Below the pieces are notes generated by a model. That model saw only the letters and a list, made by a program, of their open reading frames with translations. It did not search any database and was not told the origin of the DNA. A stretch of 64,000 nt of DNA from Oceanispirochaeta sp. Lineage in GTDB: Bacteria > Spirochaetota > Spirochaetia > DSM-2461. The DNA lies in contig CAXXXD010000002.1 in assembly GCA_963663385.2 (NCBI GenBank), forward strand, positions 1,056,001-1,120,000, read 5' to 3'. Below are positions 45,337 to 49,825 of this stretch, piece by piece (the first letter of the stretch is position 1; each line of letters begins with the position of its first letter). Position numbers and translations under genes: made by a program.

Positions 45337-45414
45337 GACCCCTCTCACTCTCCCCGAAGGGGAGATGCAATTGGAAGGTCGCACCCCTCCCTCCGGAGGG
45401 GGCTGGGGGAGGTC
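45337..45414. repeat. Family A element
   Basis: GACCCCTCTCACTCTCCCCGAAGGGGAGA...CCCCTCCCTCCGGAGGGGGCTGGGGGAGGTC; ends at a TAG stop. Confidence 0.85.
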
Positions 45415-46391
45415 TACAGCTGAATTCTCAGGTTGGTTGTCATACCCAGGGTCTGGTTGGTAATACCGTAGTTCAGACCGAAGTCAATTTTAAACAGGGG
45501 CAGGTTCAGTCCGGCTCCGCCGAAGAGACGAAGGGCTCCGCCGTTGACATCGGATGAGATAATGACACCTTCATCATCAATTTCAATTCCGGTAGCCGCT
45601 TCAAGCGCCGCGATATCCGTTGCGCTTATTTCGTTGCCGTCCAGAGAGACTGTTCCGTTTGTAATACCGCCGCCGGCTGTTGATACACCGTAGGAGTAAC
45701 CCATTCCGGCGGAAAGGTTGAGTAACAGGAGTTTCTTGCTGACCTGAGCCTTGAAATCAAAAATATTGACACCCCAGTCGAAGATCATATCCGTATCTTC
45801 AATGGCCAGTTCATTCCCGATCACTCCGTTGCTGACATCGGAGATATCCACTTCCTGATCCCCAACGGGAACAACCACTTCGCCCTTCAGGTAGGTATAA
45901 CCCACACCGACCGACAGTTCGGGCAGAACAGGATTTCCCTTCAGTACAGCGTATCGGACATCTCCGCCCAGCATAAGATAGTTCAGGGAGTAGTCTATAT
46001 CCATCAGATCCCTGGTATCCAGAACCCCGATTTTAAAACCCGCATCCATGGGAAGGATGGGGATTCCAACACGGGCATCCAGACTGTACATGGGAAGGGG
46101 AACGCCCAGACTGGAAAGGTCCGTCAGTGTGTCATCTCCGATCAGATCGGAAATATCTTCAAAAGCTGTGGAAGGTATAAATACGGCACCCATGGTAAGG
46201 CCTACTCCGAATCGGGGGAAAATCCCCGTATAGGCATCATTCCAGTTCAGTCCCATTCCGGCCATCAGGGGCAGTGTGCCTGCCACTTCATCGGCGAAAG
46301 ATTCAAATCCGTCCTCCACACCTTCCAGATCATACGCCGTTACGGAAAAAGACATTATTAATAGCAGAAATAGTATTGCTGTTTTCTTCAT
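45414..46391 (-). CDS. Putative outer-membrane beta-barrel protein
   Basis: Signal peptide, Gly/aromatic alternating strands; its RBS is the IS insertion site. Confidence 0.7.
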   Translation of the reverse strand: MKKTAILFLLLIMSFSVTAYDLEGVEDGFESFADEVAGTLPLMAGMGLNWNDAYTGIFPRFGVGLTMGAVFIPSTAFEDISDLIGDDTLTDLSSLGVPLPMYSLDARVGIPILPMDAGFKIGVLDTRDLMDIDYSLNYLMLGGDVRYAVLKGNPVLPELSVGVGYTYLKGEVVVPVGDQEVDISDVSNGVIGNELAIEDTDMIFDWGVNIFDFKAQVSKKLLLLNLSAGMGYSYGVSTAGGGITNGTVSLDGNEISATDIAALEAATGIEIDDEGVIISSDVNGGALRLFGGAGLNLPLFKIDFGLNYGITNQTLGMTTNLRIQL

Positions 46392-46450
46392 TTTTCACTC
46401 CTATAAAAAGTCAATCATAAGCCTATTAACAAGCTTACAATTGAACCGGA

Positions 46451-47563
46451 TTACCCAGTTTTTACGGCATTGAATGCAGCCGCCTGCATCTTCAAGTACT
46501 TATCATCCGGAACCATCTTCAACGGATCAAAGGGTTCACGGGTTTTCAATATGGAGTACACTACCGTACTCATCTTTCTTGCAGAGGCGATAATACTCGT
46601 GCCGCTGCCCTTGTTCTTCTTCATCGCTCTGTACTTCGTCATGATACGGTAATTGCCAGTCGTTTTCCGAGTTCTAACCATTCCCATAACACACTGAACA
46701 AATGCCGTTCTCAGTTCTACAGCCCCTCTCTTTGTTATATGCCCATGATGAATCGTCTCATTGGAGTTCTGCACCCATGGTACAAGACCGGCATAAGCCG
46801 AATACTTCTTGGCACTGGCGTACCGCTTGATATCATCCGTATAGGCCCTAATAGTCGATGCCGTTATCAATCCGACTCCCGGGATCGTCTGCAATAACTG
46901 TACATCCTCATCTTCCTTTACAAGTTCCAGCAGGACTTTCTCTAACTGCTTGACCTGGTTCGAAACCTGATCTATCGTAGAAAGCAGCGGTTCTATCGCT
47001 TTGGCAGCGCTTCCGAAACTCCTATGGTCCACGAGACCGATGAGGATGCGCTGCCTTTCTTTTTTACTCTGCAGCGCAGCTCTTTTTGTTTCAATTCCAT
47101 ACCCTAGAAGCAGTCCGTGAACCTGATTCTTCAAAGATACGACTGATTTAACAAGGATAGTTCTGGATTTAAGAACTCTACGGATATCCTCACTCTCCTG
47201 AGAACAAAGCTGTGATTCGGGAAGCATATCTTTTTCCAAGAACTCTGCTAGAGTTCTGGCATCATGCTTATCCGTCTTTTTCACTGATTCATTTACAACT
47301 TTGAATTTCAGTGTATTCACAACCACCACCTCAATCCCTGCTAGCAATAGCTTGTTACGGAAGAACCGGGCATTTCCTGTTGATTCCACTGCAGCCCTAA
47401 CATCAAGGCCCTCTTCTGTATAGGACACTGCTTTCTCAAGAAATGCTCTGTAACCGTCCTCAGAGGTCGGATACATTCCTGATTCACAAATGCTTCTATC
47501 ATCACTCAGGAAACAGACTGTTAACTGGGATTTGTGCAGATCCACTCCGATACTCATCTTCAT
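46451..47563 (-). CDS. IS110-family DEDD recombinase/transposase
   Basis: GVDLHK, AVESTG, KTDKHDA, TIPGVG, AGLVPWVQNS; start MKMSIG at 47563 (or 47557). Confidence 0.93.
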   Translation of the reverse strand: MKMSIGVDLHKSQLTVCFLSDDRSICESGMYPTSEDGYRAFLEKAVSYTEEGLDVRAAVESTGNARFFRNKLLLAGIEVVVVNTLKFKVVNESVKKTDKHDARTLAEFLEKDMLPESQLCSQESEDIRRVLKSRTILVKSVVSLKNQVHGLLLGYGIETKRAALQSKKERQRILIGLVDHRSFGSAAKAIEPLLSTIDQVSNQVKQLEKVLLELVKEDEDVQLLQTIPGVGLITASTIRAYTDDIKRYASAKKYSAYAGLVPWVQNSNETIHHGHITKRGAVELRTAFVQCVMGMVRTRKTTGNYRIMTKYRAMKKNKGSGTSIIASARKMSTVVYSILKTREPFDPLKMVPDDKYLKMQAAAFNAVKTG

Positions 47564-47574
47564 ACCTTCGCTCC

Positions 47575-47755
47575 TATTGCCTAAAACAGCGCCTGTACGG
47601 TGAATTGATTCCATTCTCCTATCCGGTCTCGAAGACCATTGAATGTTTCGGTCACGGCTCTTCATTCTCCTGTACGGTCTCGGAGACCAGTAAAAATGGC
47701 GAACAGTAACCTGGCTGTTCTAAACGATGTTTAGAACATTGTATCAATCCACAAG
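47575..47755 (-). ncRNA. Candidate bridge RNA (boundaries approximate)
   Basis: 5' hairpin 47716-47738, then two 51-nt-period units with a GGTCT-NNN-AGACC hairpin flanked by segments matching target and element end. Confidence 0.7.
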
Positions 47756-48033
47756 CCTATGAAGACTTTTTATCATTCCTCCTGTAAGCATAAAATTTAT
47801 GCTACTACAAAATTCTACTGTTTTTTTCGGGAAAATTCACGTTTTTTATTCGGAATGAGGGTAAATCCCCTCAATAGGAATTATGCTGCAGAAAGCGGCG
47901 GCTGTGCCGAACAAAAGTCCTGGACCAATTGGTCCGGGATTCTTACTGGTTTGCTTCAAAAAAACGGCTGTTATTCCCAATCATTCCGCAGGATTATAGA
48001 TAATGATAGAAAAAATGCAAAGATGCCGGTGTT

Positions 48034-48062
48034 AAAAAAAAACGGCCCCGCAGGGCCGTTTT
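48034..48062 (-). terminator. Intrinsic terminator of hcp
   Basis: AAAACGGCCC-CGCA-GGGCCGTTTT with a long U-tract on the minus strand. Confidence 0.8.
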
Positions 48063-48091
48063 CCTTAAAAAGACTATTTTCACATAGGGAA

Positions 48092-49732
48092 TCAGGCACC
48101 CATAAAAAGTTTTATATCATCTTCGACTGTACCGATCCCGGCAATGCCGAAGTTTTCAACCAGTACGTTTGCTACATTGGGTGAAAGGAAGGCGGGAAGG
48201 GTCGGGCCCAGGTGGATGTCCTTGACACCCAGGTAGAGCAGGGCCAGCAGTACGATAACCGCTTTCTGTTCATACCAGGCAATATTGTAGCTGATGGGCA
48301 GATCGTTAATGTCGTTCAGTTCAAATACTTCTTTCAGTTTAAGGGCGATAACAGCCAGGGAGTAGGAGTCATTACACTGGCCCGCATCCAGAACCCGGGG
48401 AATTCCGCCGATGTCACCCAGGGGCAGCTTGTTGTAGCGGTATTTGGCACAACCGGCCGTCAGGATAACTGTGTCTTCGGGAATCTGTCTGGCAAAGTCT
48501 GTGTAGTAGTCTCTCCCCTTCATTCTTCCGTCACAACCGGCCATTACAAAGAAACGTTTGATGGCACCGGTTTTAACGGCATCCACCACTTTGTCAGCCA
48601 GGGCGATTACCTGGTTGCGGGCAAATCCTCCGATGATTGTTCCCGTTTCAATTTCGGTGGGAGCTGAGCAGGTCTTTGCCTGAGCGATAATTTCAGAAAA
48701 ATCTTTTACTCCTCCTTCGGCAGGATCGGCGATATGTTTTACGCCGGGGTATCCGGAAGCTCCGGTGGTATAGATCCGGTCTTTATAGCTGTCTTTAACG
48801 GGGGTAATGCAGTTGGTCGTCATCAGGATGGGTCCGTTGAAGGAGGCAAACTCCTTGTCCTGTTTCCACCAGGCGTTTCCATAGTTCCCTACAAAGTGGT
48901 CATATTTTTTGAATGAGGGGTAGTAGTTGGCGGGGAGCATCTCGCTGTGAGTATACACATCCACACCGGTTCCTTCGGTCTGTTTCAGCAGCTCTTCCAT
49001 ATCTTTCAGATCATGTCCGGAAATCAGGATCCCGGGGTTAGTTTTTACTCCGATATTCACTTCCGTGATTTCGGGATTGCCGTAGGATTCGGTATTGGCC
49101 TTATCCAGTGCCGCCATTACGGAAACACCCTTCTCACCTGTTTCCATAGTGAGGGCCACAAGTTCATCCGCACTCAATGAATTGTCCAGTGTAGCCGCCA
49201 GTCCCCTGTACATAAACTTCAGAACCTCTTCGTCCTGTACTTTCAGGTGGTCCGCATGGCAGGCATAGGCCGCCATCCCTTTTAGCCCGTAGATGATCAG
49301 TTCCCGCAGGGAGCGGATATCCTCATTTTCTGTTGAAAGAACTCCCACAGTTCCGGCCTTTTCTTCCATGGCTGCGCCTGTAAGGGTAACGAAGGTAGCG
49401 GCGTCATGGAGTTCTGCCGGAACCAGGTCTCCCAGTTCTTTTTTCAGGCTGTCTCTGAGAGCGATATACTCGATGATGGTTTTTTCAAATACCGCACTGT
49501 CGAAGTTGGCATTGGTAATAGTCATAAAAAGACCGCGCATAATGGCCTGGTCTGCTTCGGGGAGGGCCTTGCCCTGAGCTCTGGCGGGGCCGGCTACCTG
49601 GGCAATCCCTTTCAGGGTATAGATCAGAAGATCCTGGAGGACCGCGGTTTCCGGAGTCTTTCCGCAGACTCCCCTGATTTCACAGCCGGTTCCTTTGGCG
49701 GCTTCCTGACACTGGTAACAGAACATATTCAT
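48092..49732 (-). CDS. hcp: Hybrid cluster protein
   Basis: [10 protein letters not shown]...GVCGK, SGHD, HSEM, AGCD, GQCND, WYEQKA; start at 49732 after AAGGAG. Confidence 0.97.
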
Positions 49733-49825
49733 TGATTGACTCCTTAACGGCCTCAAGCGACCGTAATTCAAACTGATTTCGTTTAGGTTCTGAGAACATT
49801 CTACCCGGCTTCTCCGGAAGCTTCC

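Follow-up and report, generated by a model that had tools for sequence, protein, structure and literature searches.

What directs an insertion sequence into the Shine-Dalgarno (SD) sequence of a gene that nevertheless stays intact? We addressed this question at one locus in a 64,000-nt window (the whole stretch of DNA analyzed, from Oceanispirochaeta sp.), and the answer that we consider very probable is an element with a DEDD/serine recombinase and an upstream bridge (seek) RNA set to the host SD. The locus comprises the following parts:

46398 to 47783, minus strand: whole insertion sequence, IS110 family, 1.39 kb, a span that counts one extra CTCCT; ends identical in 10 copies and a unitig.
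46451 to 47563, minus strand: recombinase gene, 370 aa, MKMSIGVD..., with a DEDD RuvC-like domain and a Tnp domain with a conserved serine.
45414 to 46391, minus strand: host gene whose ribosome-binding site (RBS) is hit, 325 aa, DUF6588, signal-peptide-like N-terminus, intact.
46390 to 46397, unstranded: gene-side host half-site, made up of the downstream gene's spacer and start codon; in gene sense TGAAAAAT of TGAAAA-ATG.
47784 to 47789, unstranded: host half-site on the promoter side, GTAAGC, the remainder of the original gcttACAGGAG.

At the left junction tttttcaCTCCT meets ATAAAAAG, and at the right junction TCATTCCTCCT meets GTaagc. The pentamer CTCCT occurs at both (46398-46402 and 47779-47783), so the ends can be defined only to within 5 nt. 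Taking out one copy of the element gives catttttcaCTCCTGTAAGC, restoring the RBS exactly as the sequence-only reading had claimed, and every string and coordinate in that reading proved correct when re-checked against the sequence. The empty site also exists in nature, as the orthologue of the DUF6588 gene in a congener (G010) carries an uninterrupted ...gcttCAGGAGTAAAAAATG.

Ten copies of the element were identified in the 5.3-Mb spirochaete genome, and all of them lie inside the SD motif AGGAG, 6-8 nt ahead of an ATG and parallel to an intact host ORF. Insertion was site- and orientation-specific, with one orientation at NNAGGAG in 10/10 copies and no target duplication beyond the short core, as is typical of the IS110 family. 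AGGAG was rebuilt at the right end of every copy, with its spacing preserved. Collecting all copies and aligning their flanks, the check proposed earlier, thus returned AGGAG-N6-8-ATG in 10/10 cases and bore out the SD region as the target; that RBSs serve as a low-damage target, as also suggested, is plausible. Relatives in several phyla share the same ends and mostly the RBS position: among the 54 relatives' loci with both the right-end (RE) terminus and a flank, 45 had an ATG 3-12 nt downstream and an ORF of at least 60 codons. One relative, with 75% identity, is found in Thiospirochaeta perfilievii both on the chromosome and on plasmid pSpe.

The recombinase, queried from 47560, one codon past the CDS start at 47563, matched PF01548 (8.6e-21) and PF02371 (4.6e-19), scored 228 bits against NF033542, "IS110 family RNA-guided transposase" (cut-off 140), and matched IS621 chain 8wt6_A at 9.3e-16 over its C-terminal half. 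The E (VES), D..D (KTDKHDA), and S (QNSNE) align with their IS621 counterparts, and the first catalytic D was read from GVD in the sequence. These domains and predicted catalytic residues place it in the IS110 family sensu ISfinder. The family trait of a long noncoding end with a structured RNA, whose segments are complementary to both target strands and to the element ends, was likewise found; the left noncoding end (LE) spans ~215 nt and the RE ~48 nt. The main structural features are:

47564 to 47778, minus strand: LE, ~215 nt, encoding the putative bridge RNA, from fold and covariation.
47743 to 47752, minus strand: 5' arm of the closing stem, GUGGAUUGAU, long-range, pairing with 47600-47609.
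47600 to 47609, minus strand: 3' arm of the closing stem, AUCAAUUCAC, from the MFE fold and the relatives' alignment.
47717 to 47737, minus strand: 5' stem-loop, GUUCUAAAC-AUC-GUUUAGAAC, from the MFE fold, with a hairpin in the same place in the relatives' alignment.
47650 to 47711, minus strand: target-binding loop unit with basal stem, internal loop, and cap hairpin.
47611 to 47649, minus strand: donor-binding unit, in the multiloop closed by the long-range stem.
46411 to 46444, minus strand: RE hairpin followed by CUUUUUAU (terminator-like), with a hairpin of different stem sequences in the same place in relatives.

Folding of the LE RNA gave -67.6 kcal/mol (z = -3.19), a stability matched by 0/200 shuffles. 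Covariance folding of the homologous noncoding ends, which had been proposed as a check, gave a consensus structure in 26 relatives with 95.9% of cells paired versus 21-41% for slid controls and with compensatory change at 14 pairs. In the closing helix (33-41/198-204), both sides had changed in 4 of 7 pairs, whereas the target unit holds a basal stem of 12 pairs (3 compensatory) and a cap hairpin of 5 pairs (2 compensatory). The earlier claim that the upstream noncoding RNA carries a target and a donor loop is backed by this structure and by the guide covariation described below. The two cap hairpins, GGTCTCCGAGACC at 47688-47676 and GGTCTTCGAGACC at 47637-47625 on the minus strand, lie 51 nt apart, and their likeness had been read as the duplication of one unit; it reflects instead the general two-loop architecture, kept in 26/26 relatives, and not a recent duplication. 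Taking the RNA from the plus strand of the window was rejected, as the loop sides, read by eye, could not then overlap on the core in either DNA orientation. A search of 46000-48200 against Rfam release 15 with E up to 10 returned 11 weak matches, all far below the gathering score and none in the LE, and those at 48031-48123 correspond to a terminator hairpin.

Two segments of the target unit are the candidate guides:

47689 to 47696, minus strand: 5'-side target guide UUUUUACU, pairing with gene-sense AG-TGAAAA just 3' of the element.
47667 to 47674, minus strand: 3'-side target guide (U)ACAGGAG, UACAGGAG, identical to the 5' flank.

The 3'-side guide has an effective length of 7 nt, and the 5' flank reads ACAGGAG in 8/10 copies. 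Across 23 related element families, this guide matched the 5' flank in 22/23 at position -6 (47672; shuffle mean 15.2) and 18/23 at -7 (47673; shuffle mean 9.2), whereas -8 gave no covariation signal; pooled over -7 and -6, there were 40/46 matches versus 24.3 expected, and 0 of 100000 shuffles reached 40. For the 5'-side guide, the match of 7/8 with a G-U reported earlier holds as 7/8 Watson-Crick pairs plus one G-U. The 3' flanks of the 10 copies fit TAAAAA with a mean of 3.8/6 versus 2.07 in 1034 RBS-like AGGAG sites, a fit reached in 0/100000 resamplings under strict pairing and 8/100000 with wobble, and a full wobble-allowed 6/6 fit occurred at 4 occupied sites versus 0/102 unoccupied RBS-like ACAGGAG sites. 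Between families, the 5'-side guide showed no covariation with the 3' flank (16 families; 40.07 observed, 39.79 shuffled), a test of low power because most guides are U-rich and most families single-locus. The 5'-side target guide is therefore supported as a pairing partner within the present genome, not by between-family covariation. Its last U may instead be a partner in the cap helix (the U-G pair 113/128). Pairing of the conserved CAU before the 5' guide with the start codon was considered and rejected, since the implied spacer is 5 nt versus a real 6-8 nt and since CA pairs with UG in the basal stem.

Both target pairings would meet on AG/CT within AGGAG, which agrees with the earlier claim that the guides overlap on a CT core; the crossover itself cannot be placed at CT specifically, because CTCCT is common to donor and target. 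A guide register on the second CT of CTCCT was discarded, as the 5'-side guide would miss the core there; this CT could still be the exchange site.

Reconstructed pre-insertion sites differed from the guide-defined 14-mer by 0, 0, 1, 2, 3, 4, 4, 4, 4, and 5 mismatches. The two perfect 14-mer targets in the 5.3 Mb are both occupied (2 of the 10 reconstructed sites), with 0 unoccupied perfect targets and, after removal of three right-junction artefacts from the 16 and 107 sites listed, 14 unoccupied near-matches with 1 mismatch and 106 with 2; each of 20 shuffled 14-mers had 0-1 perfect matches in the genome. Only 161 of 1462 genomic ACAGGAG sites are RBS-like. Half of the occupied sites (5/10) carry 4-5 mismatches and are still RBSs, so guide pairing alone does not account for the exclusivity for RBSs.

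These divergent sites, all of them RBSs, are what might be expected if the recombinase or the subterminal repeats recognized AGGAG-like DNA by protein contact, purifying selection removed intragenic insertions, and the AGGAGs in the loops were end copies or structural motifs in place of guides. Such an account also draws on AGGAG being invariant, and hence free of covariation, in both loops and both ends, on the missing cross-family signal of the 5'-side guide, and on several 5' flanks whose likeness to the RE subterminal repeat (TTTTTAC/TTTTTAT) extends past the guide. However, among independent insertions in different hosts, the two variable guide bases beside AGGAG change with the host flank, which counts against protein recognition because host DNA cannot inherit such bases from the element. 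The occupation of both perfect 14-mers speaks in the same direction, as does the requirement of RNA for recombination in tested relatives described by Durrant 2024 (PMC11208160) and Siddiquee 2024 (PMC11187229). We regard protein recognition as very improbable. The candidate donor guides and the element's own ends comprise the following features:

47641 to 47645, minus strand: donor guide on the 5' side, CAUUC, the complement of GAATG at the LE terminus (47774-47778).
47616 to 47622, minus strand: donor guide on the 3' side, AUAGGAG, the same sequence as the RE terminus (46398-46404, other strand).
47764 to 47773, unstranded: LE copy of the subterminal inverted repeat, ATAAAAAGTC (RNA sense), including a -10-like TGaTAAAAA.
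46403 to 46412, unstranded: RE copy of the subterminal inverted repeat, GACTTTTTAT (RNA sense), overlapping a -35-like TTGACT (46409-46414).

The CAUUC side had been described as only a partial match. It instead behaves as a real 5-nt guide that changes together with the element terminus in relatives: helix 2-6/158-162 (GAATG/CAUUC) was 97.7% paired in 26 relatives, with the variants GCACG/CGUGC, GCATG/CAUGC, and GTATG/CAUAC. Two of the four guide segments are shown to covary with DNA, and the covarying LE terminus could also pair inside a read-through transcript instead of as DNA. AUAGGAG is consistent with a donor guide and is without covariation, being invariant in the 26 aligned relatives. 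In a relative with 79% identity, 9/15 of the 5' flanks fit this donor guide better than the target guide UUUAGGAG. The CT adjoining CATTC has no pairing partner in CAUUC-AAU, and among analogues of handshake guides, the AAUG 3' of AGGAG fits the donor only with a bulge. The LE and RE repeats form a perfect 10-bp inverted repeat, separated by exactly 10 bp in the computed circle junction, which holds TTGACT-17 nt-TAAAAA preceded by TGa, a sigma-70-like arrangement.

Covariation with host flanks and with the element terminus is not predicted by a translational role, and this makes us give little credence to the structured upstream region being a 5'-UTR regulator of recombinase translation, with its SD-like AGGAGs sequestering ribosomes or the real SD and the flank likeness a by-product of insertion at SDs. 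Both loops do hold AGGAGAAUG, which resembles an SD plus start codon, and a 404-aa ORF starting from an in-frame ATG at 47665 runs across the region; this ATG is not conserved, with AUUG or ACUG in relatives, and the AGGAG-to-AUG spacing is 1 nt.

Under the bridge RNA mechanism that we favor, the RNA would be made and bound by the recombinase, the 3' side of the target loop, (U)ACAGGAG, would pair with the antisense strand of the host SD region, and the U-rich 5' side would pair with the sense strand of the downstream purine-rich spacer. In the donor unit, AUAGGAG and CAUUC would read the abutting ends in the predicted excised circle, GACTTTTTAT-AGGAG-GAATG-ATAAAAAGTC, and the sigma-70-like promoter TTGACT-17-TGaTAAAAA would be re-formed only there. 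Since CTCCT is common to donor and target, AGGAG is left at both junctions and the host gene keeps an SD at native spacing, from which it would presumably still be expressed. After insertion, the element would sit co-oriented and directly upstream of the host gene. The 14 public runs listed for the locus include no RNA run that contains it.

We compared this layout with the known systems. The two-loop logic and the circle promoter are known from the bridge RNA of IS621 and the IS110 group (Durrant et al. 2024, PMC11208160; Hiraizumi et al. 2024, PMC11208158). As in IS621, a DEDD plus serine recombinase is accompanied by an upstream noncoding RNA, here a predicted one, that folds into a 5' hairpin and separate loops for target and donor; the two sides of each loop match opposite DNA strands and converge on a core that includes CT, and a promoter, here a candidate in the computed junction, is split between RE (-35) and LE (-10). 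The long noncoding region upstream of the recombinase gene is likewise a trait of the IS621-like group. IS621 had been cited as an example in the sequence-only reading, but the layout departs from it in the order of strand matches, which is reversed relative to transcription of the element: the loop 3' side equals the LE-side (5') flank, and the loop 5' side is the complement of the RE-side flank. It departs also in the perfect 10-bp subterminal inverted repeats, which are absent or 2-3 bp in the IS621-like group. Further differences are the donor unit placed in a multiloop, a stretch common to donor and target of 5 nt versus 2 in IS621, an SD target versus a REP sequence, and a recombinase only distantly related to that of IS621 (E 9e-16).

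IS1111-type seekRNAs (Siddiquee et al. 2024, PMC11187229) are the known precedent for the sTIR rule and for strand matches in reversed order. Like IS1111-family elements (ISEc11, ISPa11, ISKpn4), the present element has UUUUUACU (top-strand complement) 5' of ACAGGAG (equal to the top strand), subterminal inverted repeats whose 10-bp separation in the circle fits terminal extensions of 7 + 3 bp, and a putative promoter that would form at the circle junction. Its repeats of 10 bp are one short of the usual 11-13 bp, and its long noncoding region lies upstream of the recombinase gene, whereas that of IS1111 lies downstream of the transposase gene, ISMtsp17 being one of the rare exceptions (Siddiquee et al. 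2024, PMC11187229). A layout mixing IS110-type and IS1111-type features is relevant to covariance models and to orthologue mining for genome engineering. IS1111-type elements are common on enterobacterial plasmids. Such plasmids were absent from the ten commonest host genera of the tblastn matches, the single E. coli record among 60 spread-sampled tblastn rows was a partial match (E 7e-6), and the best plasmid matches to the recombinase outside the clade had only ~30% identity.

A wider reading, which we put forward tentatively and would sooner bet against than for, is that the element represents a deep cross-phylum bridge RNA clade, with recombinases down to ~32% identity, a hybrid architecture, AGGAG-wired loops, and extra-cistron insertions. 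Its members would jointly come from Spirochaetota, Desulfobacterota, Lentisphaeria/Victivallales, Patescibacteria, Chloroflexota, Bacteroidota, and Clostridia, and would combine the upstream RNA of IS110 with the subterminal repeats and guide order of IS1111. Both loops would be hard-wired to AGGAG, making the landing pad the most conserved short motif of bacterial genes, and the tuned part would be only the 2-3 bases beside AGGAG and perhaps a wobble-tolerant U-rich spacer guide. With CTCCT shared and the element parallel to the gene, an insertion would act as an extra cistron, in which transcription of the bridge RNA and recombinase would start from host promoters and the element end would hand the gene a fresh SD. 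The terminator-like RE hairpin argues against simple read-through into the host gene. If true, this reading would explain the intact central-metabolism genes directly downstream and the easy spread across phyla without reprogramming.

RBS targeting by an IS110-family element (IS900) and bridge or seek RNAs have both already been published, and the present element leaves the known mechanism unchanged. IS900 of Mycobacterium avium subsp. paratuberculosis was reportedly found by Doran and colleagues in 1997 to insert at translation initiation signals in a fixed orientation. The present IS110-family element likewise occupies the RBS and start-codon region in a fixed orientation (10/10). According to PMC8141618, the host signals lie antiparallel to the IS900 transposase and serve hed, an ORF of the complementary strand; in the present element, recombinase and host gene run in the same direction in 10/10 copies and the element end supplies a new AGGAG. 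Literature searches linking bridge RNAs or IS110 to SD sequences, RBSs, or target sites turned up no paper on the topic, a search on IS900 and RBS found only one irrelevant paper, and term searches of the supplements of Durrant 2024 and Siddiquee 2024, apart from one PDF each, gave no mention of RBS targets or spirochaete elements. The element offers an RNA-based explanation for the long-known landing of some IS110-family elements on translation start signals, with all four guide segments readable from one genome and checkable against ten sites and many relatives. An AGGAG guide with a tolerant second half would amount to natural "half-match" targeting, a case relevant to off-target rules for bridge recombinases.

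Judged from copy number and identity, 46398-47783 appears to be an active, multicopy insertion sequence of the IS110 family sensu ISfinder. That the copies are fixed relics, left from an old burst of a now immobile element, is hard to credit, even though neither circle junctions, which excision would be expected to form, nor empty-site joints occurred in the public contigs of four runs, because the 10 copies are 99.93-100% identical over 1386-1388 nt with intact ORFs, a relative is present in only 1/10 other congeners (a single copy, 75% identity), and a run from another strain contains the element unitig at ~13x depth together with flanks absent from the present locus. The public-run unitig covers exactly 46398-47783, at a depth of 411 versus 27-31 in the flanks (~13x).

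Ten copies of the IS110-family element, 99.93-100% identical over 1386-1388 nt, were identified in the whole genome (5.3 Mb, 4 contigs), and with their flanks aligned all ten read, in the recombinase sense, ...NNAGGAG/GAATGATAAAAAG ... GACTTTTTATAGGAG/N6-8 ATG, slashes marking the junctions. The sequence-only reading, every string and coordinate of which proved correct when the sequence was re-read, had proposed a bridge RNA programmed against Shine-Dalgarno (SD) sequences; this is supported, with corrections, and we consider it very probable that the element is bridge-RNA-guided and aimed at SD sequences. Because CTCCT is common to both junctions, the element ends are fixed only to within 5 nt. 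In 10/10 copies the downstream ATG opens an ORF that runs without interruption over the length of the locus examined.

Host genes behind the ten copies
DUF6588 protein (window copy)
alpha/beta hydrolase
GFO/IDH/MocA oxidoreductase
URO-D-like protein
zinc alcohol dehydrogenase
methyl-accepting chemotaxis protein
H+-pyrophosphatase
malonate decarboxylase ACP
GNAT acetyltransferase
glycerophosphodiester phosphodiesterase

The orthologue of the DUF6588 gene in a congener (G010) has an unbroken ...gcttCAGGAGTAAAAAATG, which is what the pre-insertion reconstruction predicts for an empty site. In public-run contigs of another strain, a single unitig corresponds exactly to 46398-47783, at depth 411 versus 27-31 in the flanks; in run X2 the unitig depth suggests about 13 element copies. 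Set against window 45900-48300, runs X2, X6, and X9 show loose ends at 46382-46390 and 47783-47788, where, in other strains or samples, the element ends are the same but the flanks attached to them differ, part of these being flanks of other copies in this genome and part not. Rfam gave weak matches at 48031-48123 (RNAI, Bp1_162, and TarB), each far below threshold and all due to the same G+C-rich hairpin with a U-run after it (...AACGGCCCUGCGGGGCCGUUUUUUUUU). This hairpin is just downstream of a hybrid-cluster-protein gene (PF03063 5.6e-178; 48092-49771, minus strand) and is most simply read as the intrinsic terminator of that gene.

Features of the element
46451-47563, minus strand: recombinase ORF, 370 aa (MKMSIGVD...), inside the element at 46398-47783
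upstream of the gene, ~215 nt: non-coding end LE
downstream of the gene, ~48 nt: non-coding end RE
47696-47689: target loop, 5' side, UUUUUACU
47674-47667: target loop, 3' side, (U)ACAGGAG
47645-47641: donor unit, 5' side, CAUUC
46411-46444, minus strand: terminator-like hairpin and CUUUUUAU in RE, directly before the regenerated AGGAG

Both IS110-family domains were identified in the recombinase (PF01548, 8.6e-21; PF02371, 4.6e-19), which in addition scores 228 bits (cut-off 140) against NCBIfam NF033542, "IS110 family RNA-guided transposase." The closest solved structures are IS621 (E 9e-16) and the ISCro4 transposase (E 1e-15), chiefly over the C-terminal half, and the E of VES, both D of KTDKHDA, and the S of QNSNE align to their IS621 counterparts. 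A protein of Thiospirochaeta perfilievii (74.8%) is its sole close relative with a name among the matches, the following plasmid matches being ~30% identical. An in-frame ATG at 47665 (minus strand, inside the target loop) would lengthen the ORF to 404 aa; it is not kept in relatives, which have AUUG or ACUG there, and is therefore probably unused as a start.

The 3' side of the target loop equals the 5' flank over ACAGGAG in 8 of the 10 copies, the two remaining flanks being AAAGGAG and GCAGGAG. The 5' side would pair with gene-sense AG-TAAAAA, and the mean match of the ten 3' flanks to TAAAAA is 3.8/6 versus 2.07 in 1034 RBS-like AGGAG sites of this genome, a fit attained in 0 of 100000 resamples (8 of 100000 with G-U allowed). 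Four occupied sites are fully wobble-complementary to the 5'-side guide versus 0 of 102 unoccupied RBS-like ACAGGAG sites. From the complete 14-mer that the guides define, the ten sites differ by 0, 0, 1, 2, 3, 4, 4, 4, 4, and 5 mismatches; no unoccupied perfect 14-mer site was found in the genome. Genuine unoccupied sites number 14 with one mismatch (16 listed, of which two are element right junctions) and 106 with two (107 listed, one being the right junction of the window copy), and 1088 3-mismatch sites are listed.

Across 23 element families from relatives (L046, with SD TGGAG, left out; L040 and L042, which the regular expression missed or mis-hit, read by eye), target-guide bases track the host flank: guide and flank bases are the same at -6 in 22 families and at -7 in 18, with shuffle means of 15.2 and 9.2, and 0 of 100000 shuffles attained the observed joint value. 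Position -8 gave no guide-flank signal in these families (7/23 versus 5.8). Since these flanks belong to the hosts and the insertions are independent, the match does not come from shared element descent. No covariation between the 5'-side guide and the 3' flank was found across 16 families (40.07 versus 39.79). We regard this half of the target guide as real but tolerant, since it fits the 3' flanks within the genome yet does not covary across families; the last U of UUUUUACU may be part of the cap helix. CAUUC, described earlier as matching the element end only partly, is a real donor guide: it is complementary to the LE terminus GAATG, and the two change jointly in relatives (GCACG/CGUGC, GCATG/CAUGC, GTATG/CAUAC), with 97.7% of this "helix" paired and both sides changing at two of the five pairs, in 8 and 3 sequences. 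The 3' side of the donor unit, AUAGGAG, equals the RE terminus and is invariant across relatives, and is therefore consistent but uninformative.

Guide pairing is not the whole explanation of the sites. RBS-like positions account for only 161 of the 1462 genomic ACAGGAG sites and only 98 of the 1088 3-mismatch sites (about a tenth), yet the poorly matched insertions are likewise all at RBSs. Selection against intragenic insertions is one possible reason, and easier melting of AT-rich initiation regions is another; "half-match" recombination, in which matching half of the RNA would suffice, is also possible and is reported for IS621 in the examined part of a 2026 preprint. A 79% relative with 15 copies in one MAG points the same way, with the 5' flank ..TTATAGGAG in 9 of 15, which fits the donor guide better than its own target guide UUUAGGAG. 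In the same MAG (OY776510.1), 5 of 15 sites (L015, L016, L021, L022, L029) have a common repeat ~30-90 nt upstream of LE: a hairpin of type cctgcatccatgcagg, next a T-run, and last the SD. This repeat may be a leader or terminator element that recurs, or what is left of older element copies; at L015, L016, and L022, the regular expression also matched an LE-start-like motif further upstream. The element's right junction is itself a 1-2-mismatch target (three such junctions among the listed sites). In a Spirochaeta sp. MAG (L039:2595-2700), the RE terminus is tandemly duplicated, ..GACTTTTTATAGGAG then TTGAGCTCACGGTTGACTTTTTATAGGAG, before the host ATG, which may be a trace of an element targeting its own right junction.

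No Rfam 15 family matches LE, which folds at -67.6 kcal/mol (z = -3.19), better than its own shuffles. Aligned with 25 LEs of relatives (recombinases 51-79% identical), the window LE gave a consensus with a long-range closing stem, a 5' hairpin, a stem with internal loop and cap hairpin, and a second cap hairpin within the multiloop. In this structure, 95.9% of cells are paired versus 21-41% with partners slid 1-3 columns, and 14 of 33 pairs have both-side changes.

IS900, also of the IS110 family, reportedly targets translation initiation signals, as Doran et al. described in 1997. It lies antiparallel to host signals, whereas the present element is parallel and restores the SD; the IS900 hed ORF is described in the examined part of PMC8141618. 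Bridge and seek RNAs were described in 2024 (PMC11208160; PMC11187229, both in part), and a 2026 preprint survey of variant bridge RNAs gives 32,190 predicted RNAs and 86 models, its examined part making no mention of RBS targets; our literature search found no paper linking bridge RNAs to SD or RBS targets. The mechanism is not new; what is new here is a well-documented element of a known kind, with a mixed layout.

By its sequence, that layout is mixed IS110-type and IS1111-type. The earlier comparison with IS621 holds for a two-loop RNA upstream of the gene; the strand-match order and the repeats are IS1111-type. With the top strand in RNA sense, the strand-match order of the loop sides is the reverse of that in IS621 for target and donor alike (Durrant 2024, PMC11208160; Hiraizumi 2024, PMC11208158, examined in part), and the same reversal separates IS1111-type from IS110-type seekRNAs in the examined part of Siddiquee et al. 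(PMC11187229), so that the order is common to IS1111-type elements and ours. The definition of IS1111-type elements given there rests on subterminal inverted repeats (as a rule 11-13 bp long) extended by 7 + 3 bp, and on a non-coding region that follows the gene; upstream placement is a rare exception, ISMtsp17 being one example. In our element the subterminal repeats are perfect and 10 bp long (GACTTTTTAT/ATAAAAAGTC), and the computed circle junction separates them by exactly 10 bp, but its RNA is upstream of the gene. Its donor unit lies in the multiloop, as in many IS1111 orthologues (PMC11208160, in part). The same computed junction also contains TTGACT-17 nt-TAAAAA with TGa in front, paralleling the split promoter of IS621 and ISEc11.

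The clade scan, with one genome per species, returned 76 loci, 61 with the RE terminus by regular expression, 54 of these with flanking DNA. An ATG 3-12 nt past the terminal AGGAG opens at least 60 codons in 45 of the 54; L028, L034, L072, and L073 have such an ATG and then a short ORF, L060 has one yet falls outside the 45, L040 has an ATG further out, past a repeated GGAGG, and no credible start was found at L061, L066, and L078. Hosts, by MAG labels as deposited, span Spirochaetia, Desulfobacterales, Gracilibacteria, WWE3, Dehalococcoidales, Dysgonamonadaceae, Leptospira, Lentisphaeria/Victivallales, and Clostridia. A 32-37% group with other repeats has the same pattern, ...AAGGAG/ATGGTATGATAAATAG ... 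TTTATCATAGGAG/N5-10 ATG, with loop segments GAAAGGAG and UAUAGGAG.

Directly downstream ORFs in relatives are intact as far as the loci extend, and 21 of 28 submitted (of 42 such ORFs) had a Pfam family at E up to 1e-10; they include phosphoglucose isomerase, isopropylmalate-synthase-like protein, transaldolase, KDPG aldolase, dihydrolipoamide-dehydrogenase-like protein, transketolase-family protein, AhpC, and Clp ATPase. These intact ORFs suggest that host-gene expression survives insertion, with caution because of the terminator-like hairpin in RE. A hairpin is also present at this position in relatives, though with differing stem sequences, and in Marispirochaeta its 3' arm and the repeat are complementary to LE over ~19 nt.

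Of 40 genomes related to that of the window, 3 gave a match to the element family at E up to 1e-40: a congener with a single copy (1 of 10 congeners), G013 with six copies, and G027, which belongs to a different family in the same class, with a fragment. This patchy distribution and the ten near-identical copies here indicate recent activity and patchy spread. The fragment (G027:C15:18481-18840) spans 120 residues, is 63% identical to the central part of the recombinase, and contains one in-frame TGA; it probably represents a decayed copy.
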